From NCBI GenBank assembly GCA_024679065.1, contig JAGIQG010000287.1, positions 1 to 43,592 of the forward strand: a stretch of 43,592 bases of DNA. Reading direction: 5' to 3'. Positions 18,341 to 43,592 of this stretch are shown one piece after another (the first letter of the stretch is position 1; every line of letters begins with the position of its first letter). The notes below the pieces were generated by a model. That model ran no database searches. It saw only the letters and a program-made list of their open reading frames with translations, and was not told the DNA's origin. The stretch comes from Sphyrna mokarran. Lineage: Eukaryota. A program made the translations under genes and the position numbers.

Positions 18341-20521
18341 ATAAAACAACAAAATACAATTTCACATCTCAATATAATACAACAAATATGATTTTATATA
18401 TCAATTTAATACAACACAATACGATTCCACATCCCAATCTAGTACAACAGAACGCAATTCACATCTCAACCTAATACAACGACACAAGATGATTCCACAT
18501 CTCAATCCAATACAACACAATATGATTCCATGTCTTAATTTGTACAACACAGTGTGATTCCTTATTTTCATCTATTACTACACAATATGATTCCAAAGCT
18601 CACTCTATTAAAATTCAGCATGGTTCCACATCACAACCTCATGTAACACAGTATGATTGCAAAAACTCGACATAGTTCCACTTCTCAATCTAATAAACAC
18701 AATATAATTCTACATCCCAATCTAATAAACACAATATGATTCCACATCTCAAACTAATAAACATAATATGATTCTATACCTCAATCCAATAAAACACAAC
18801 ATGATTTCACATCTCAGGCTAATGCAACTCAATATGATTCCACATCAAAATCTAATACAACTACACAATATGATTCTACATCTCAATCTAACACAATACG
18901 ATTCCACAACACAATCTAATGCAATTCAGTATGATTTTACATCTCAATCTAATACAATAAAAAAGATTCAACATATCAAACTAGTATATCACAGTATGAT
19001 TATACATCTCAATCTAATAAAATATGATTCTACATCTCATTTGACCACAACACTATACAACTCAACTCAATATGCTTCCACATCTTAATTTCATTGAACA
19101 CAACATGATTCCAAGTTAACTTTGTCAACTTAATATAACACAATACGATTCCACGTTTCAATCTTACACAAAACAATGCGATTACATATCTCAATCTCAT
19201 ACAGTAGGATTCCATATATCAATCTGGAACAATTTTATGTTTCAATATAATGATTCCTAATCTCAACCTTATAGATCAGAATGTGTTTCCACGTCTCAAT
19301 ATATTATTAAGCAATACGATTCCACATGAGAATCTCATACGTCTAACAATATGATTCCACATCTCAATGTAATTGAACACAACATGATTTCACATATCAA
19401 CTTAGTATAACACAAAAAGATTCCTCATCTCAATCTAATACAAAACAGTGCAATTCCATATCTCAATCACATACCACAAAATACGATTCCATATATCAAT
19501 CTCATAGAATATAGTACGATTTTGCATCTCAATATAAGCAACATAGTATGATTCCTCATCTCAATTTAATATAACTCATCATGACTCTACATCTCAATGT
19601 AACACAGCACAATATATGATTCTACATCTCTGTTTAACACATCACTGTGTAAATCCACGCCCCAATTTAATTCAACGCAATATGATTCCACATCTCACTC
19701 TAGTACAGCACAATATGATTCTACGACTCATTCTAATGCAATTCAATATGATTCCATTTCTCAATCTAACACAATACGATTCCACAACTCAACCAAATAC
19801 AACTCTCTATGATTCCGAATCTCAATCTAACACAATATGATTCCACATCTCAATGTAATATAGCACAATATGATTCTGCATCTCAATCTAGTACAATAAA
19901 AAAGCAATTCAACATCTCTAGCTAATACATCACAATATGATTCCGCATTTCAATCTAATAAAATATAATATGATTCTACATCTCAACTGACCACAACACA
20001 ATACAATTTCACATCTCAATCTAATAAAACACAATATGATTCCAAATTCCAATTTAACATAAGACAATGTGATTCCAAATCTCAATCTAATGCATCTGAA
20101 TATGATTCCACATTTCAGTCGAACAGTGCCCAATATGATTCCACATCTCAATTTAATACAACACAGTATGATTTCAAATCTCAATCTAATACAACACAAA
20201 TATGATTCCAAATTTCAATGTAATACAACATAGAACAATCCAACATCTCACTCTTAAACAACACAATATGACTCCACGTCTCAATCTAATACAACACTAT
20301 ATTTAATTGTTATACAATAAAAAAAACAATTGCAAATCTCAATCTAATCCAACACAATATGATTCATCATGTCAACCTGACAAAACACAATATGATTTCA
20401 CATCTCAATATAACGCAAACGATTTCACATCTCACTCTAATATAACACAACATGATTCCACAACTCAATGTAACACTGCACAAAATGATTCTACTTCTCA
20501 TTCGAACACAATACACTACAA
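18341..20521. repeat. ~33-bp AT-rich minisatellite, left block
   Basis: Unit approximately caatatgattccacatctcaatctaatacaaca, spacing about 28-36 nt. Confidence 0.95.
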
Positions 20522-22417
20522 TTCCACAAGGAGAATCCCAAGGCCTTCTACAAATATGTCAAAAGTAAAAGGATGAGACGAGAAGGGGTAGGACCTATAA
20601 AAGGTGAAGGGGGAAACGTCTGTGTGAATCCGGAAGAAATGGCAGAGGTGCTTCATGAGTACTTTGCCTCGGTATTCACGGTAGAAAGTGAACTGGGAGG
20701 TTGTACTGCAGGTTTGAGGCAAACGGAAAAGATTGAGTATGTGGAAGTTAGGAAAGAGGATGTGTTAGACCTGTTAAATTCTATCAAGATAGACAAGTCG
20801 CCGGGACCGGATGGGATGTATCCCAGGTTATTGTGGGAGGTGAGAGAAGCGATTGCGGAGCACCTGGCGATGATCTTTGCGTCGTCCATGGAAACGGGAG
20901 AGGTTCCGGAGGATTGGAGGATTGCGGATGTGGCTCCTATCTTTAAGAAAGGGAACAGGGATAGCCCAGAAGTCACCGACCGGTGAGTCTGACTTCAGTG
21001 GTTGGTAAGCTGATGGAGAGGCTTCTGAAGGATAAGATTTATGAACATTTGGAGAAGTTTGGACTGATTAGAAATAGTCAGCATGGTTTTGTCAAGGGCA
21101 GGTCATGCCTTACGAGCCGAGTTGAGTTCTTCGAAAATGTGACTGAACACATTGACGAAGGAAGAGCAGTGGACGTAGTGTACATGGACTTTAACAAGAC
21201 GTTTGATGAGGTCCCCCATGCAAGGCTTCTGGAGAAGGTGAGAGGGCATGGGATCCAAGGGGCTTTGGCCTCGTGGATCCAGAACTGTCTTGCCGGCAGA
21301 AGACAGAGAGTGGTTGTGGATAGGTTTTGTTCTGCATGGAGTTTGGTAAACAGTGGAGTGCCCCAAGGATTTGTTCTGGGTCCCCTGCTGTTTGTCATTT
21401 TCATAAATGACCTGGATGAGGAAGTGGAGGGATGGTTTAGTAAGTTCGCCGACAATACAAAGTCGGTGATGTTGTGGATGGTCTGGAGGGCTGTCAAAAG
21501 TTGTAGCGGGACATAGACAGGATGCAAGACTGGGCGGAGAAGTGGCAGATGGACTTCAACGCGGATAAATGTGTAGTGGTCCATTTTGGCAGGAATAATG
21601 GGATGAAGGAGTACAATATAAGGACATAGAACATTACAGCACAGAACAGGCCCTTCGGCCTTCGATGTTGTGCCGACCAAAGGACCAATAGGAGTAGGAG
21701 TCTGAGCTGTGTTGTAGAGCAGAAGGATCTCGGGGTCCGGGTCCATAGGACTCTCAAATCGGCCTCGCAGGTGGAGGAAGTGGTCAAGAAGGCTTACGGT
21801 GTACTGGCCTTCATTAATCGAGGAATAGACTTTAGGAGTCAGGAGGTAATGATGCAGTACTATAAGACTCTTGTCAGACCCCACTTGGAGTATTGTGCCC
21901 AGTTCTGGTCGCCTCACTATAGGAAGGATGTAGAGGCTATTGAGAGAGTGCAGAGGAGATTTACAAGGTTTCTGCCTGGATTCGGAGGCAGGCCTTATGA
22001 AGATAGGTTGAGCGAGCTGGGACTCTTCTCACTGGAGAGACGTAGGTTGAGAGGCGACCTGATAGAAGTTTATAAAATGTTGTAAGGAATAGATAGGGTG
22101 GACTCTCAGAGACTATTTCCCAGGGCTGAAATGGTCACTACGAGAGGACACAGATTTAAGTTGCAGAGAAGCAAATACAGAGCGGATGTTCGGGGTAAGT
22201 TTTTCACTCAGAGGGTGGTGAGTGAATGGAATCGGCTACCGTTGGAAGTTGTTGAGGCAAACTCGCTGGGGTCTTTTAAAAAAAAACTTCTGGATGAATA
22301 TATGAAAACGAATGGGATAGGGGGTTATATATAGGTCTGTGGATTGGTAGATGTGATAGGCGCAACTCGTAGGCCGAAGGGCCTGTTTGTGCTATATTGT
22401 TCGATGTTCTATGTTCT
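20522..22417 (+). mobile_element. CR1 subfamily B inserted in the 33-bp array, carrying an inverted subfamily A 3' end at about 21624-21680
   Basis: KSPGPDG, QHGF, GVPQG motifs with frameshifts; nested reverse tail acatagaacattacagcacagaacaggcccttcggcc. Confidence 0.94.
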
Positions 22418-23222
22418 ATCTCAGTTTAACACGACACAATATATTTACACATCTCAATCTAAAATAACACAATATGATTCCACATCTCAATCTCATGCAA
22501 CTCAATATGTTGCACATCTCAATCTAACACAATACGATTCCACAACTCAATGTAATGCAACTCACTGTGATTCCGCATCTCAGTCTAACATATTATGATT
22601 CTGCAACTCAATCTAATACAACGTAACATGATTCTACATCTCATTCGAAGACAACACAATGCAATTCCGCATCTCAATCCAATGCAACTCAATATGTTTC
22701 CGCATCTCAATCTAATATAACACGTTATAATTCCACATCTCAATCTACAATAACACAATCTAATTCCACATCTCAATCTAACACAAAGGAAAGCGATTCC
22801 TCATTTCAATATAACGCAACTCAACGTGATTTGACATCTCAATCTAATTCAACACAATATGATTCCACATTTCAATTTAATACGCACAAGGCTGTTCAAT
22901 ATATCACTCTAATGTGACAAAATATGATTCCACATCTCAATCTAATAAAACTCAGCATGATTCCACATCTCAATCTCAAACAAGTGCGCAATATGACTCA
23001 ACATCACAATACAATAGAACACAATATAACTCCAAATCTCAATCTGATAAAACTCAGCATGATTTCACATCACAACCTCATGCAGCAGAATAAGATTCCA
23101 CATCTCAGTCTGATGAAACCCAGTATGGTTCTACATCTGAATTTAATATAACTCAACATTATTCCACATTTCAATCTAATAAAGCACAGCATGATTCCAC
23201 ATCTCAATATAATGCAACCCAA
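22418..23222. repeat. ~33-bp minisatellite, right block
   Basis: Same unit as 18341-20521. Confidence 0.95.
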
Positions 23223-30650: not shown

Positions 30651-32240
30651 CAAATGGCTCCAAAACAATTTACAATCTCTGTGCAAAATGGTTTATTTTG
30701 ACAAATGTAAAGCAGTGTTAATTTGAACGTACATCGACACATTGGTATCACAAATTGTCCAATGTTCTACATTACATCAGAAACTAGCAATTATCAATAT
30801 ATCCAAAAATCATCACGCAACACCTCAGATTCTCAATAGTTATGACATTAAAAATATGATGGGATAAGTCGTATCATCTCAGTTAAAAAAAAGTCATCTG
30901 AAATTTACTCACTTGTCTAATTTTCTAACGTGACTGAAGGATTGATGTTTGCAAATTTCGCCAGCAAACGTCTTGCAGTTCAAACCAATGCGTTACGTTT
31001 CAAGCTGTATGGATTTTATTTATTCATTCGTGGAACATGGGCATCGCTGGTTGGACAGTATTTTTTGCCCATTCCGAGTTGCTATTGGAGGGCAGTTAAT
31101 AATTAATCACACTGCAGTGGCTCGGAATTCACTTGTCAGCCAGACCGGTTAAGGAGGCATTTTTCTTTCTCTGGTGAATATTAGTGAACCAGATATTATT
31201 TTACGACAGTCGACAAGGGTCAACAGTAGATTATTAATGACAGAGATTTAAAACAATACAATAATAATAATCCAAATTTAACAATCTGCCGTGGTGGGAT
31301 ACAAAGCCCAATCCACATTAGCTAACATGCTGAATTATGAGTCTCGTGATAATGCCACTAGACCGCCGCATCAAGGTGCGAAAATTTACTGAGAATTAAG
31401 GGGAAAAAATACACCTTTAAAACGGTGGTTTGGTAAAAGAGGAAAATTCTCAAGGGCATTGGGAAAAAGCCGAGACTTTAGACTAAATTACCAGTTAAAA
31501 CAAATGACACTGGCTTGACGGGCAGAATGGCCTCTTTCTGGGCTGGAAATGACGACAGAAATAAGCTTCGAGTCTATAAAATCCACTTCCCCGTGTTATT
31601 ATACGGGAATATGGATTGCAGAAATGGTCTTTCAGGATTAAGTAACAATGTTCAATTAAATGTCCAACACTAGGCTGCATCCAGCTAAGGCTCGGGACAC
31701 ATTTAATCTTCAGAGATTTCAGATTCATGCAGCCGAAATCCCAAACCAGTTGCTAACAAGCCTGTTCTGCCCTTAATCCCATCTCCAACGCACACACACT
31801 CACCCTAAAATCTTTTTGTAAATTCGTTGAAGGGCCACCGGAAGCATCTTTGTTCTAAACCGCCATAGAAACAGGAATCACACAGCTTACATTTGGTATT
31901 CAAAACCTGTTTCACTGTTTAGGTAACTGGGGAAAAGGCACATTTTGGATTGTCCCTTGCACAATAACGGTAGAAAATGCGGAATACAATGTTAAAAGCC
32001 GATATAAAAATCAGAAGCATGAAGGGGTGAAATTGCATTGCAGGCCATATTTCGTCTTAGAATGGCGGACATTAAGGGAAAGTTCATTTTTCACCTTGGG
32101 ACCAACATAGTATTGAGCCGCCAATCCGCCCGAATTTGTACTGGCTGCACATTCAGAACTTCCGGTAGCACAAGAAGAATGCTTCCACAATAGTAGATTT
32201 CTAGGAAATACAGACTGAGTTCTCCCAATTTCCTCTCGAG

Positions 32241-32285
32241 TTAGAGTTTTGGATCCTCGTTAAAGGCCAGGCGAGCATAAAGTGT
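32241..32285 (-). CDS. IgSF receptor terminal coding exon with ITIM/ITSM-like motif
   Basis: Acceptor cctttttttcatccacAG; phase 0 matches the preceding donor; reads TLYARLAFNEDPKL*. Confidence 0.75.
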   Translation of the reverse strand, partial: TLYARLAFNEDPKL

Positions 32286-32859
32286 CTGTGGATGAAAAAA
32301 AGGTCTGTTAATACAATCCATACCATTGAGTTCCCCACCTCCTTCCCTCTTCCCCGCCACCACTCTACTCAATGGGTTTATGGTTGACGAGTAGCTCAAC
32401 TCACACACACACATACATTGAATAATCCTTAATCCATTCACTAACATAAATCTATCCGTCTCACTTTGGAGAGTCCCAAAGGTATAATGGCTCTGTATAG
32501 CTTTTTAGTGACCAGAAAGCCGACCCTCATTGTGTGGAGAAACGTTTTGATTTGATTTGGTTTATTCTTGCCTCATATATATTAGTATGTATTGAAAAGT
32601 ACTGCTTCTTGTCCAATAGTGACAAAGAGTGTCGTGTATGGAACAGGAATGGCGAGGGTGCAGATTATAATATTATAGTGATAGCTCACGTGTAGAGAAA
32701 GATCATCTTAATATGAGGCAGGTCAACTCTGACGGTAGCAGGGAAGAAGCTGTTCTTGGGTCGATTGGCACGTGACCTTAGACTGATGTATTTTTTTACC
32801 CCGAAGGAAGGAGGTGGAAAAGAGATGCGTGGGGTCCTTGATTATACTGGCTGTTTTCA

Positions 32860-33580
32860 CATATTACGATCACAGCTGATCGTCCAGCCCAAAAGCCTAA
32901 TCCTGACTTCTCCCCATTACCTTCGCCCCCAAGTGTATGTCTAGCCACTTCTCAAATACATTCAATTTTTTGGCGTCAACTACATCCTGTGGTAATGAAT
33001 CTCATAGGTTCACCACGTTTTGGATGATGAAATGTCTAGTCACCTTTGTTCTGGATGGTCTACCTAAAATCTCAGACTGTGGCTCCTCGTTCCGGACTCC
33101 CCCTAGCATCAGCAACATCCTCCCTGCATCTGCCATGTCTAGTCGTGTTAGAATTTCATAAGCCTGTGAAATCCCCTCATTTGTCTGGACTCCACTGAAA
33201 ACAATCCTGACCTAGTCAACCTCTCGTTATACATCAGTCCCGCCATTCCCGGAATGAGCCTGATAAATCTTCAATGCATTTCCTCCAGAGCAAGGACGTT
33301 CTTCCAAATTCAATACGCTTGGTATGTTTCCTGCTCTACCCAAATCCACAATAACTGGTCCTGTCCCATCACCCAATCTGTGATTGCTGTTTCTGGACTG
33401 CCCCAGCATCGGGAACATCCTTCCTGCTTCTAACCTATCTAGTCCTGTTAGAATTTTATGTCTGTGAAATCCCTCTCATTTGTCTGAACACGAGCGAAAA
33501 CAATGATAACCTCTTCAATCTCTCGTCAAACATCAGTCCTTCTATTCCCGAAATCAGTCTGGTAAACCATCGTTACACTC
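32860..33580 (-). mobile_element. Degenerate CR1 3' fragments with internal duplication
   Basis: Two related blocks at about 33085-33300 and 33385-33580. Confidence 0.7.
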
Positions 33581-33581
33581 C

Positions 33582-34362
33582 AGAACATAGAACATAGAAC
33601 ATAGAACATAGAACAATACAGCACACAACAGGCCCTTCGGCCTTCGATGTTGTGCCGACCAAAATAAAAAGCAATGCCCCTCCAAACTAAACCATTCCCT
33701 TCTCTTCCATATACTTATCAATTAACCTCTTAAACGCCACCAAACTTGGCGCATCTACAACAGCTGCAGGCAGGGCATTCCACTCCCTAATCACTCTATG
33801 AGTAAAGAACCTACCTCTGATATCCGTCCTATAACTCATACCCCTTAATTTAAAGCTGTGTCCCCTCGTGCTAGCATTCTCCATCCTAGGAAAAAGGCTA
33901 TCACTGAAAAGGATAAAACTGTCCACCCTATCTAAACCTCTCATCATCTTATATGTTTCAATAAGGTCTCCTCTTATCCGCCTCCTTTATAACGAAAACA
34001 ACCTCAAATCCCTCAGCCTCTCCTCATAAGACCTGCCCTCCATACCAGGCAACATCCTGGTAAACCTCCTCTGTACCCTCTCCAATGCCTCCACATCATT
34101 CTTATAATGTGGGGACCAGAACTGCACACAATACTCCAAGTGCGGCCGCACTAGAGTTTTGTACAGTTGCAACATGACGTTGCGGCTCCGAAATTCAATC
34201 CCCCTACCATAAAAGCTAAGACTCCGTATGCCTTCTTAACAACCTTATCGACTTGACTGCCTACTTTCAGGGATCTATGCACAAATACACCAAGATCCCT
34301 CTGTTCATCAACACTATTAAAAATCCTACCATTAGCCCTATACTCTACACATTTATTATTCT
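33582..34362 (-). mobile_element. CR1 subfamily A in the last intron of the receptor
   Basis: LVRPHLEYC..RFFTHRV; (ATAGAAC)n tail. Confidence 0.95.
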
Positions 34363-35141
34363 TGCTCTCTCAATGTTCTTGCTCTTTCAAGAGCAAGAAC
34401 ATTTTTCCATAGTGAATAAGCTTGATATGTTTCCTGCTCTGACCAAGACTGCAAGAACTACAAAGGATCATGAATGAGTCATGTCCTGTCATTCAAACCA
34501 GCCTCCCATCCAATGAATCTTTCGACACTTCCTCTTCCCCCGGCAAAGCAGTCAGCATAATTAAGGACCCCAGGCATTCCGGACGTTCCCTCTTTCACCT
34601 ACTTCCGTCGGGAAAAAGAAACAAAGGTCTGAGGTCACGTACCAACTGGCGTAAGGACAGCTTCTTCTCTGCTTCCATCAGACTTTTGAATGGACCTCGC
34701 TGTAAGTTGATCTTTCCCTACACCCTATCCATGACGATAACACTACATTCTCCACACGCTCCTTTCCTGCTCTATGAACGATATGCCTTCTCTGTATAGA
34801 GCGCAAGAAACAATTGTATTCCAATAAATTTGACAATATTAAATCAACTCTATGAATGGTATGCTTTTTCTGTATCACGCGCAAAAACAATACTTTTCAC
34901 GTATGCTAATATATGTGACAGTAATAAATCAACCCAAATCAAATGACCCACGAATAAATTGAACAAAAATATAACTTTGAAGAGGTGTCATTCGGCCTGG
35001 AGACTTTAATCTATCCGTCATGCCGCCAGGCTTGTTGAGAATTTCCAGAATTTTCTGTGTTGGTTGCGAATTCTAAATCGCGGATTAATAATTAATGAAA
35101 AATATCCGTGTGTTTTAGTAACAATAATTCTATTCATTCAC

Positions 35142-35200
35142 CTCTTTATCCTGTTTGTGTTCTCTGGATTCTGTCAGTTCCTCATCACTGTTCGCGGTTC
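35142..35200 (-). CDS. IgSF receptor cytoplasmic exon 1
   Basis: 138-nt intron after the TM exon; acceptor ctctatttctaacAG; donor GAG|GTGAAT; 59 nt; phase 1 to 0; open as (G)TANSDEELTESREHKQDKE. Confidence 0.78.
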
Positions 35201-35338
35201 CTGTTAGAAATAGAGATTGAAATGAAATTTAAAATGGCTACATTTCACACCGAACCCGTTCAGAGGTGTCAATAACTCAGTGATAAATGAGTGGATTGAG
35301 AGCGCCGTGGAGTAACAGCGTTTCCCAGCAATCATTAC

Positions 35339-35458
35339 CTCTCTGGCGGTTCCTGCAGATCATACTTCCGGCCACAAGGATCAATCCCAGAAGCAGAAAC
35401 GCCGCGGCCGACAAACCCCCGGAAAACATTAAATTACAGATGGATGAGGACGGAGAAT
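35339..35458 (-). CDS. IgSF receptor exon: short Cys-containing stalk and transmembrane helix
   Basis: Acceptor gtgtttttgcAG; donor G|GTAATG; phase 1/1; 120 nt. DSPSSSICNLMFSGGLSAAAFLLLGLILVAGSMICRNRQR has a hydrophobic span with no charged residue followed by a basic stop-transfer sequence. Confidence 0.85.
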
Positions 35459-39740: not shown

Positions 39741-39949
39741 TGAGAAAGTTACACCAGGGAAAAGCTTGAGTATTGACAGAGAGAAAGTGGGGGAGGGAGG
39801 TGTGCGGGTGGGTTGGGGTGGCGGGGAGTCGGTGGTAAACAGGAGAAAATAAACAACAAAAGAAGGCCTATCAATCTATCGAGCCTGCAAGAAAATAATC
39901 CCACGCAGGTCCCAACCACTTAATCCCAAATATTTACCATGACACCAGA

Positions 39950-40370
39950 CAATTTAGCATGGCCAATCCACCTGATTTACTAATCTTTGGACACTCAGGA
40001 ACAATTTAGCACGGCCAATCCACCTAACCTGCACATCTTTGGACACTAAGGGGCAATTTAGCATGGCCAATCCACCAGCCTGCACACTTTTGGACACTAA
40101 GAAGCAAGTTAGCATGGCCAATCCACCAGCCTGCACACTTTTGGACACTAAGAAGCAAGTTAGCATGGCTAATACAGCTAACCTTCGGATCCATGACACT
40201 TGGATTCAATTAACCTTGGCTAGTCCAGATGACCTACATATTCCTTAACATTAAGGGGCGATTTAAAGCAGCCAATCCATCCAATCTGCACATCTTTGGA
40301 CACTGAGGAATAATTTAGCACGGTCAATCCACCTAACCCGTACATCTTTGGAGATTGAGAGGAAACAGAA
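39950..40370 (-). repeat. Tandem array of a 51-52-bp SINE-core unit, about 8 copies
   Basis: caatttagcatggccaatccacctaacctgcacatctttggacactaagggg at about 39950, 40002, 40054, 40105, 40156, 40259, 40311. Confidence 0.9.
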
Positions 40371-40914: not shown

Positions 40915-41310
40915 TAAAGAAGAGGTGATTCGGTTTAACTTGTTTACTCTGCCATCTAATAACACCATGGCTAAGCATGTACATGAACCTCACTTCCCCC
41001 GGCCTCTTTCCCTTAGCGTTTAATCTATCCGTTCTAAAAAAAAAACTGTTTCTGTGTTTGAATATTCACTGTTTTCTATAGAAGATATAAAATATCAGAA
41101 AACGAAACTGGGAGGACAATGATAGGGTAGTGATGATTTCTATCTCCATGGAGATGCCCGCGGAGACATTTGCAAGAAAATACTCCCACCCACGTCCCAA
41201 TCACTTAATCCCAAAAATTTACAGTGACACTAAGAGATAATCTACAATGGCCCCTTGGTAAGTTGCCCCCCTTAATATGAAATGGATTGAAAAATGGTCA
41301 GTGTGAATAC

Positions 41311-41616
41311 CTCTCTGAGATGAGACACTTTCACTGAGAACACTTTCACTGAAGTTGACTTGAATGGCGCAAGTACAGTGAGCGCCGCTTCTCCAAGTTT
41401 CTGCCGAGACGCTGATGTAACTCCTGACGGTGTAGGTCCCGTCCGGCTCCAGTGTCCCCGAATCGGTCTGTCCCTCGGTATCTCTCCCTGAAACATTCCA
41501 GCTGATGGGAAAGGGATCGGGAGACACACCTCTGATCAAACACAACAATGGGACGCTTTTCATATCGGGAATCTCATCCAGCGGCGGGGTGAGGAGGAAT
41601 ATGGTGGGAGAACCCG
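41311..41616 (-). CDS. IgSF receptor exon: C1-set constant domain
   Basis: Acceptor ...tttAG after a 100-nt intron; donor G|GTATTC; phase 1/1; 306 nt. PTIFLLTP, LLCLIRGVSP, Trp at Cys+14 (ISWNVSG), DGTYTVRSYISV, TW..G..CTC follow the Ig/TCR/MHC C1-set pattern. Confidence 0.92.
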
Positions 41617-41716
41617 CTAAATCCAGTGAATGAAACAGAACACCCGTTAACTGGTGGAACAAGACACTTTATTATCTTTGAGAAACCCACTGAAAGAGAA
41701 TAATAATGGAATTTAC

Positions 41717-42055
41717 CCATAATCACTAACTTGGAGCCATTGCCGAATATTTGGGCCATTTTCGGGTAATTGGAGATTGCACAGTAATACACCCCAGAAT
41801 CATTTATCCGGGAATCCGCAATGGTAAGTGTATAAATACGCCCATTTTCAGAAATCTCGCTTGAATATCTCTCCACAACTGGACTGTTCTGGAACGCTGT
41901 ATAGATGGCATCGATGTTGTTTCTTCCCCTCTGTCTGTACCAGAAGACAGAGCCAGCAGCTTGCTCCTGGATGTGGCAGCGGAGATTAACAGAACACCCG
42001 GCAGGGAGCGTCTGAACCGGCGGAGACTGGGACACGGTTACTTGAGACACTGTAA
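41717..42055 (-). CDS. IgSF receptor exon: germline-joined V-J domain (non-rearranging)
   Basis: Acceptor ttttatctctctttctctttcccAG (alternative in-phase AG 6 nt downstream, exon start 42049); donor G|GTAAAT; phase 1/1; 339 nt. Translation has VSQSP, first Cys (LRC), WYRQ, YTLTI, DSGVYYC, an 11-aa CDR3-like loop and the J motif FGNGSKLVI in one exon. No RSS seen at the V-J junction. Confidence 0.93.
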
Positions 42056-42252
42056 CTGGGAAAGAGAAAGAGAGATAAAACAACAGTCACCTCAGATTAT
42101 GGACCATTCCTTGAAGATAGCGGACTGAAAGCCAATTGGGAGTAAACTTCAAACCAGCCTTCCATTCAATGACACATCCCGCTGCCTCGGGGAAAAGCAA
42201 CTAGCATGATCAAGGGTCCCCATGCACCCTGGGCATTCTCTCTTCCACCATT

Positions 42253-42335
42253 ATGGACTTTAGTAAGGCGTTTGATAAGGTGGCCCATGGAAGACTTCTG
42301 CAGAAAATGCAGATGTATGGGATAGAAGGTGATTT
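42253..42335 (+). mobile_element. Short CR1 RT fragment in inverted orientation abutting a LINE tail
   Basis: [27 protein letters not shown]; near reverse complement of about 43423-43505. Confidence 0.9.
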
Positions 42336-43592
42336 AGAACATAGAACATAGAACATAGAACAATACAGCACAGAACAGGCCCTTCGGCCTTCGATGTTGT
42401 GCCGACCAAAATAAAAAAGCAATGCCCCTCCAAACTAAACCATTCCCTTCTCTTCCATATACTTATCAACTAACCTCTTAAACGCACCAAACTTGGCGCA
42501 TCTACAACAGCTGCAGGCAGGGCATTCCACTCCCTAATCACTCTTTGAGTAAAGAACCTACCTCTGATATCCGTCCTATAACTCATACCCATTAATTTAA
42601 AGCTGTGTCCCCTCGTGCTAGCTTTCTCCATCCTAGGAAAAAGGCTATCACTGTCCACCCTATCTAAACCTCTAATCATCTTATATGTTTCGATTAGGTC
42701 CCCTCTTAGCCGCTCCTTTCTAACGAAAACAATCTCAAATCCCTCAGCCTCTCTTCATAAGACCTGCCCTCCATACCAGGCAACATCCTGGTAAACCTCC
42801 TCTGGACCCTCTCCAATGCCTCCACATCTTTCTTATAATGTGGGGACCAGAACTGCACACAATACTCCAAGTGCGGCCGCACTAGAGTTTTGTACAGCTG
42901 CAACATGATGCTGCGGCTCCGAAATTCAATCCCCCTACCCATAAAAGCTAAGACTCCATAAGCCTTCTTAACAACTTTATCCACTTGACTGCCTACTTTC
43001 AGGGATCTATTGACACATACACCAAGATCCTTCTGTTCCTCAACACTATTAAGAGCACTACCATTAGCCCTATACTCTACACATTTATTGTTCCTGCCAA
43101 AGTGCATTACCTCACACTTTTCCACATTAAACTCCATTTGCCACCTCTCGGCCCAGCTCTGCAACTTGTCCAAGTCACTCTGTAAACTAAAACACCCCTC
43201 TTCACTATATACCACACCACCAACTTTAGTATCATCTGCAAATTTACTGATCCATCCCTCAATACCCTCATCCAGATCATTTCTAAAAATTACAAACAGC
43301 AGGGGCCCCAAAACAGACCCCTGAGGCACACCACTCGTCACCGAACTCCACGATGAATATCTCCCATCAACCACCACCCTCTGTCTTCTATCTGCCAGCC
43401 AATTCCTAATCCAATTAGCTAAATCACACTCTATTCCACACATCTGCATTTTCTGTAGAAGTCTTCCATGGGCCACCTTATCAAAAGCCTTACTAAAGTC
43501 CATATATACTACATCAACCGCCTTACCCCCATCCACCTCTCTGGTCACTTTCTCAAAAAACTCAATGAGGTAGTAAGGCATGACCTACCCTT
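42336..43592 (-). mobile_element. CR1 subfamily A in the presumed leader-V intron, runs off the window
   Basis: ORF 42706-43581 with RT motifs; tail at 42336. Confidence 0.95.

Follow-up and report, generated by a model that had tools for sequence, protein, structure and literature searches.

The window, i.e., the whole stretch of DNA analyzed here, is the entire 43.6-kb contig C868 (43,592 nucleotides) of Sphyrna mokarran, whose 2.77 Gb genome is rich in CR1 LINE elements. Its minus strand carries a gene composed of a VJ exon, a C1 exon, a stalk/transmembrane (TM) exon, a first tail exon and a last exon, and all five were found to be open, with canonical AG/GT splice sites and compatible phases. 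Among named homologs, the closest comes from the shark Mustelus asterias, and the NCBI models P0002 (Mustelus) and P0003 (Heterodontus) present the same exon usage. The features are as follows:

42337..43592, minus strand: CR1 LINE fragment inside the leader-V intron, up to the contig end (repeat annotation)
41717..42055, minus strand: VJ exon of 339 nt, with a V-set domain and a J-like FGNG in one exon, and the end of a split leader (Pfam V-set, E = 2e-14; AG/GT)
41311..41616, minus strand: C1-set domain exon, phase 1-1 (Pfam C1-set, E = 8e-10; AG/GT)
35339..35458, minus strand: stalk and transmembrane exon of 120 nt (AG/GT; joints in RNA-like contigs)
35436..35438, minus strand: stalk Cys, likely forming an inter-chain disulfide (invariant column C237)
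About 35358-35432, minus strand, within the stalk/TM exon: uncharged TM (hydropathy; the homolog P0003 is modelled with a TM helix at 241-265)
35355..35357, minus strand: juxtamembrane Cys, possible palmitoylation site (26/35 elasmobranch homologs have a Cys no more than 10 residues from the TM)
35142..35200, minus strand: tail exon 1 of 59 nt, phase 1-0, containing SDEE (splice ends; RNA-like contigs)
32241..32285, minus strand: last coding exon and stop (RNA-like contigs; conservation)
32285-32268, minus strand, first codons of the last exon: TLYARL, with the Tyr codon at 32279-32277 (translation)
31000..32240, minus strand: probable 3' UTR (hexamers of the poly(A)-signal type at 31707, 31024 and 30697; X4 contigs on 31807-31986 and 32044-32281)

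The leader exon was not found within the window; the leaders of paralogs lie about 1.6-2.4 kb upstream of V and, since the contig ends inside the first (leader-V) intron, the leader exon of this gene is placed outside the window. No RSS heptamer was found in 41301-43592, and CDR3 has a length of 11 residues in all but one of 13 aligned copies, the exception being frameshifted. In the window copy, ERY replaces the conserved GRF in V and an extra Cys precedes V strand B, and after the TM the basic stop-transfer GRR is replaced by GSM, which lengthens the hydrophobic stretch. The window also contains degenerate 33-bp tandem arrays at 18342-20528 and 22418-23222 (67 and 25 copies, respectively), interrupted by CR1 fragments, and a 51-bp tandem array at 39949-40352. 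Contig C891 is the reverse complement of the window, identical over 28,238 bases from the same start and divergent thereafter, and is a duplicated assembly or haplotig and not an independent copy.

The stalk/TM, tail and last exons have phases 1/1/0 and, when spliced in frame, give a TM without Lys, Arg, Asp or Glu (best 19-residue hydropathy of 2.39), followed by a tail of 39 residues in which TLYARL opens the last exon. This agrees with the preliminary description of the locus, which had read the same uncharged TM, the juxtamembrane Cys and an identical tail. Splicing was evaluated in the runs X1-X4, whose RNA status is a guess of the tool ("RNA-like"). A contig of 184 nt from X1 joins the TM, tail and last exons over copy-distinguishing bases, with 0 differences on 35338-35400 and 35142-35199 and a loose end equal to 32256-32285; these 151 aligned or matched bases are identical to the window copy, and the last exon and frame proposed earlier are used, not another terminal exon or frame. 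The same tail joints, plus the C1-to-TM joint, were found in X4, which comes from another organism, and the joints in the RNA-like contigs omit the introns exactly; runs X2 and X3 gave no match on the tail stretch. No extra phase-compatible exon was found between tail exon 1 and the last exon. Between C1 and TM, two candidate exons of compatible phase were dropped, as one is an antisense CR1 and both X4 and annotated homologs splice C1 directly to TM. As a gauge of chance, a TLYARL-type motif follows 2 of the 656 acceptor-like sites in the window. Skipping of the 59-nt tail exon switches the frame, removes the Tyr and leaves a short tail; the skipped isoform is annotated in Mustelus (P0001) and was not seen in the runs aligned here.

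The ectodomain is of the antigen-receptor type, as proposed earlier, with V-set and C1-set domains by Pfam and a germline-joined VJ, and its fold matches are Fab chains. On its predicted architecture, the gene most likely belongs to the PRARP/VJC1 family. PRARP is reportedly the subject of Fu et al. 2019 (J Immunol 202:1992) and the Xenopus VJC1 genes are said to be treated in Ohta et al. 2019 (J Immunol 203:1882); we take PRARP/VJC1 to be a pair of non-rearranging VJ(-C1) genes in the region syntenic with human 1q21, with a TM, an ITIM- or ITSM-type tail and a stalk Cys, which form disulfide-linked homo- or heterodimers and are expressed in lymphocytes. The window gene presents a germline VJ exon without RSS, one C1, a TM and a tail with an ITSM-type motif, and two linked sister gene types, A and B, are found on contig C1027, with one pair on C894. 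PRARP/VJC1 are mentioned in the available portions of PMC10751288 and PMC11599192, and the supplement of the former holds no PRARP/VJC1 entry. Profile searches for the family reached sturgeon, lungfish, coelacanth, amphibians, turtles, crocodilians, lizards and birds. In trees of V+C1 (36 rows), shark A grouped with bony-vertebrate proteins of the TxYxx(V/L) class (97/87 and 95/85), and the (I/L)xYxx(L/I) class took in shark B (97/90); the alternative clade of shark A and shark B gave a p-AU of 0.072 and was thus not rejected, and single-domain trees do not separate the alternatives. Orthology to the chicken/Xenopus PRARP/VJC1 genes is probable from trees whose rows include no labelled PRARP sequence. 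The IgL/TCR domains of the same genome fell outside the type-A clade (SH-aLRT of 96-97). A third VJ-C1-TM clade was observed beside type B (P0142, P0178, P0146, P0166 and P0095, including lungfish and coelacanth), and the caecilian P0093, which belongs to the VJ-C1 type-A family, carries the annotation 'programmed cell death protein 1', probably a misnomer prompted by its ITSM-like tail.

Identity as UrIg/UrIg2, a TCR chain or PD-1 was rejected. UrIg and UrIg2 resemble the window gene in their single-exon VJ, split leader, C1 domains and occurrence in elasmobranchs, and UrIg2 was the third-ranked PDB hit of the window C1 domain; however, according to the excerpts available of PMC12227049, UrIg is secreted and has three C1 domains, UrIg2 has nine, and they are located in the MHC and the Ig/TCR complex, whereas MHC linkage was not seen at the contig level in S. 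mokarran, where all 53 MHC class I hits lie on another contig (C1548). The VJ-C1 architecture is shared with TCR chains and germline-joined shark IgL, and the stalk Cys with TCR, but the window gene differs from TCR in its lack of a basic TM residue for CD3, its long Tyr-bearing tail and the absence of RSS. The ITSM of PD-1 is given as (T/V)EYATIx(F/Y) in the available part of PMC12151841; PD-1, like the window gene, has T at -2, A at +1, hydrophobic residues at +3 and +5 and an uncharged TM, and reptile type-A tails read TEYATL or TEYAAV. PD-1 differs in being a single-copy gene with one V domain and with an ITIM and an ITSM on one chain, compared with the VJ-C1 and single Tyr found here. A single-exon VJ domain (L067, C994:514600-515400) was also observed on a contig with TCR/IgH-like segments.

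The residues conserved around the tail Tyr are T(-2), Y, A(+1), L(+3) and F(+5), and position +2 is variable (R, H, N, G, Q, D, P, T or A). In the elasmobranch set (39 proteins, 35 with a TM), YAxL was found in 31 of the 35 TM-bearing homologs, as TxYAxL (21), DxYAxL (8, the ray form) or SxYAxL (2), and no motif in 4. The tetrapod set comprised 113 new hits, of which 67 were TM-bearing, and the Tyr motif was present in 52 of the latter (TxYxxV in 25, TxYxxL in 25 and VxYxxL in 2) and absent in 15, many of them bird models. The TxYxxV/L motif is thus found in reptile and amphibian homologs, and the T at -2 is kept from sharks to reptiles. The window motif fits the ITSM when defined as TxYxxV/I/L (PMC3958483, in the part available), not the narrower TxYxx(V/I), and does not match the ITIM (S/I/V/L)xYxx(I/V/L), since Thr stands at -2. 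The preliminary description had placed TxYxxL between ITIM and ITSM; it is instead the normal ITSM-type motif of the family. The stalk Cys (column C237) is invariant in 26 elasmobranch proteins, as it is across 37 proteins spanning sharks to reptiles. The SDEE, earlier noted to fit a CK2 site, is present, but S[DN][DE]E occurs in only 8/35 elasmobranch homologs, and a CK2 site was rejected as a family feature. For 10 copies with open V and C1 exons (the broken L025, L034 and L037 being excluded), dN/dS values were 1.18 for the CDR-like loops (CI 0.60-2.30), 0.43 for the V framework, 0.31 for C1 and 0.35 for the tail codons (CI 0.16-0.65), with a CI of 0.07-1.22 for the last exon by itself; these rates indicate that the tail evolves under purifying selection.

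Searches of the same genome revealed 36 type-A and 34 type-B V exons at 0.6-2.85 Mb of C1027, a cluster of about 2.2 Mb, these counts being lower bounds in which some near-identical members may be assembly duplicates. One further A/B pair lies on C894, where the type-B copy has a J-like segment without the canonical FGxG. The window contig, which is unplaced, contains no type-B gene. Neighbouring V exons are of opposite type in 53 of 69 cases, compared with 35 expected in shuffles (0/10,000 as high), and the duplication unit is therefore taken to be an A+B cassette. The 53 A/B neighbours of C1027 comprise 40 tandem, 9 tail-to-tail and 4 head-to-head arrangements, and head-to-head pairing as the general layout of this contig was rejected. 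Type-B genes have a stalk Cys and a hydrophobic TM (TM exon recovered at 16 of 21 loci), with Arg at the outer edge in a few, and 8 of the 10 last exons found read P-(T/L)-Y-(A/S)-S-L. The shark type-B Tyr motif, for which the tail model is incomplete by one exon, has Pro at -2 and no canonical ITIM, and is followed by a basic KRSKKK end; tetrapod B-type proteins carry a canonical I/LxYxxL/I. Many type-A paralogs are broken, and gene fragments were also observed (L088 at C1027:646-650 kb, L087 at C1027:560 kb, L112 and L113), their kinds being a leader with a frameshifted TM exon without V or C1, an orphan leader and orphan last exons. Contig C1016, which begins with a broken type-A copy in its first 9 kb, also carries PRPF3 and one of the three APH1 genes; PRPF3 and APH1 are presumably markers of human 1q21.

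TM exons were resolved at 35 type-A loci of this genome, the frameshifted L088 being unscored in the Arg/Tyr count. The last-exon Tyr was kept in 25/25 uncharged-TM paralogs, two of which (L024 and L030) show splice damage; together with the elasmobranch homologs above, this bears out the conservation of the Tyr, a check suggested in the preliminary description. By comparison, the Tyr was found in 0/5 paralogs with an Arg in the outer TM. Four copies with mid- or inner-TM Arg (L033, L101, L107 and L104) kept the last-exon Tyr, the unscored L088 being a fifth copy of this kind, so a charged TM does not always go with loss of the Tyr. L033, L101 and L107 combine a mid-TM Arg with the Tyr motif and are reminiscent of mixed receptors of the KIR2DL4/NKp44 type. 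Fisher tests of Tyr loss against TM Arg gave values of 7e-6 for outer Arg and 5e-4 when all Arg copies were counted, both of which overstate the association because the copies are related. When the TM-tail intron, the first tail exon and the 3' UTR were used for a tree, the outer-Arg copies formed two separate lineages, and a single clade was rejected (p-AU 3e-54). L098 (C1027, about 1.05-1.06 Mb) and L108 (1.32-1.33 Mb) have open V and C1 exons, an outer-TM Arg and a Tyr-less tail of 18-19 residues, and are candidate intact activating receptors; the other three outer-Arg copies are broken or truncated. The same outer-Arg/no-Tyr combination was found in Heterodontus (P0010). Charged-TM sisters without the Tyr motif, as looked for in paired receptors, are therefore present (L098 and L108), and the outer-Arg/no-Tyr and uncharged Tyr-bearing paralogs constitute, at the level of predicted proteins, a paired inhibitory/activating signature. 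KIR, LILR/PIR, SIRP and teleost NITR form tandem clusters with variable ligand loops and with both uncharged ITIM-type and charged tail-less forms. The shark family resembles them in its tandem multigene cluster, variable loops, uncharged Tyr forms and charged Tyr-less forms, and differs in its ectodomain, which is an Ig-light-chain/TCR-like VJ-C1, and in its probable two-chain cassette.

Assembly of TCR chains with CD3 depends on basic residues in the TM and, since that of the window gene has none, any signal must come from its own tail or from a partner. The reading favored here, considered moderately probable, is that the gene encodes a non-rearranging VJ-C1 receptor with an uncharged TM, likely an inhibitory member of a shark paired-receptor family, which would recruit an SHP-2-type phosphatase without CD3. 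As for the separate parts, the tail Tyr motif is very probably functional, net inhibition through SHP is fairly probable, and the formation of an A/B heterodimer has slightly less than an even chance. Binding of a ligand by the V domain would lead to receptor clustering, and a Src-family kinase would then phosphorylate the tail Tyr. A disulfide-linked dimer, either A/A or A/B with the type-B YxxL, would supply the tandem SH2 domains of SHP-2/SHP-2L (or SHP-1) with two phosphotyrosines, the tail Tyr likely being an ITSM-like site for SHP-2-type recruitment by such stalk-Cys dimers. In the available portions of the sources, the SHP-2 C-SH2 domain is reported to prefer T at -2, A at +1, I/v/l at +3 and an aromatic residue at +5, and sharks to possess SHP-2 and SHP-2L (PMC12151841); two phosphotyrosines are given as the optimum for tandem-SH2 phosphatases (PMC3958483), and the single ITSMs of two PD-1 molecules can be bridged by SHP-2 (PMC7078208). 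The window motif matches this preference (T at -2, A at +1, F at +5), with L at +3 as the weaker residue. Complex prediction for the Heterodontus A (P0003) and B (P0085) ectodomains gave a score of 0.59, compared with 0.53 for the control, a margin that counts neither for nor against A/B pairing. Against the inhibitory reading, the five outer-Arg copies represent two events and three of the five are broken or truncated. Also weighing against it are the four Arg copies that keep the Tyr, the reported dispensability of the KIR2DL5 TxYxxL for inhibition (PMC3443818), the weaker L at +3, the fit of YARL to mu2, the Pro at -2 of shark type-B motifs, the wide dN/dS interval of the last exon, the shark A and B clade that was not rejected, and the window contig, in which neither a type-B gene nor the leader exon was found. 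Of the inhibitory or switch signalling proposed in the preliminary description, the inhibitory part is supported by the loss of Tyr with outer-TM Arg, whereas a SAP-type switch found no support.

The tail Tyr could alternatively act chiefly as a YxxPhi sorting signal, serving ligand capture and AP-2 internalization with little or no phosphatase signalling, which is regarded as unlikely. An excerpt of PMC2133128 indicates that mu2 favours Leu in the Phi position and Arg as the second X residue, which makes YARL an optimal mu2 signal, in keeping with the endocytosis fit noted earlier, and the lone motif lies near the C-terminus; nevertheless, +2 varies while the SH2-relevant T at -2, A at +1 and hydrophobic +5 are kept, and loss of the Tyr goes with gain of the outer-TM Arg. 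Dual use is plausible, as the unphosphorylated YARL probably also binds AP-2 in a CTLA-4-like manner, and phosphorylation would switch off a YARL-type AP-2 signal (PMC2133128, same excerpt). The position of the motif within the ITSM TxYxxV/I/L (PMC3958483, in part) and the retention of T at -2 from sharks to reptiles would also suit a SLAM-type switch receptor, binding SAP/EAT-2 and being activating or inhibitory depending on the cell, yet this is quite improbable given the DxYAxL of rays (8/35), the separate Arg-type activation candidates of the family and the precedent of KIR2DL5, whose TxYxxL is described in the available text of PMC3443818 as dispensable for inhibition and without SAP recruitment.

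The same precedent, together with the alternation of A and B genes and the canonical I/LxYxxL/I of tetrapod B-type proteins, would favour the A chain as an accessory subunit with a weak motif, the signal coming mainly from the type-B partner or another co-receptor; with the tail under purifying selection and the Tyr gone from the outer-Arg-type A copies, such a role is improbable to a slightly greater degree. That the window copy is a transcribed yet decaying paralog is very improbable: the leader exon was not found, but the contig stops inside the first intron, and the odd substitutions in V (ERY for GRF) and behind the TM (GSM for GRR) and the many broken paralogs are set against five open exons with canonical splice sites and a spliced RNA-like contig identical to the window copy.

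The tail motif is as expected for PRARP and is in that sense confirmatory, the notable elements being the large A/B cassette expansion and the candidate activating forms; PRARP/VJC1 is one pair, whereas the shark cluster counts about 36 type-A and 34 type-B V exons. No published description of the shark cluster or of its Arg-type members was found by title and abstract among the papers searched, and the primary PRARP and VJC1 papers may hold one. A wider reading, tentative and rather doubtful, is that of a shark KIR/Ly49-like system: TCR-shaped, non-rearranging two-chain receptors from about 36 A and 34 B genes, duplicated as cassettes at the 1q21 MHC paralogon, pairing combinatorially, with a PD-1-like ITSM (A) and an ITIM-like motif (B) split over the chains and repeated Arg-bearing activating spin-offs. 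If true, this system would supply the NK-type receptor repertoire still missing from cartilaginous fish and serve as a living model for the function of a VJ-C1 receptor before RAG and CD3. Non-rearranging VJ-C1 genes are candidate relatives of the antigen-receptor ancestor, and the shark VJ-C1 on/off pairs, which would use their own tail Tyr and not CD3 and have variable CDR-like loops, offer a concrete candidate, open to experiment, for innate-like (NK-type) recognition among the oldest jawed vertebrates.
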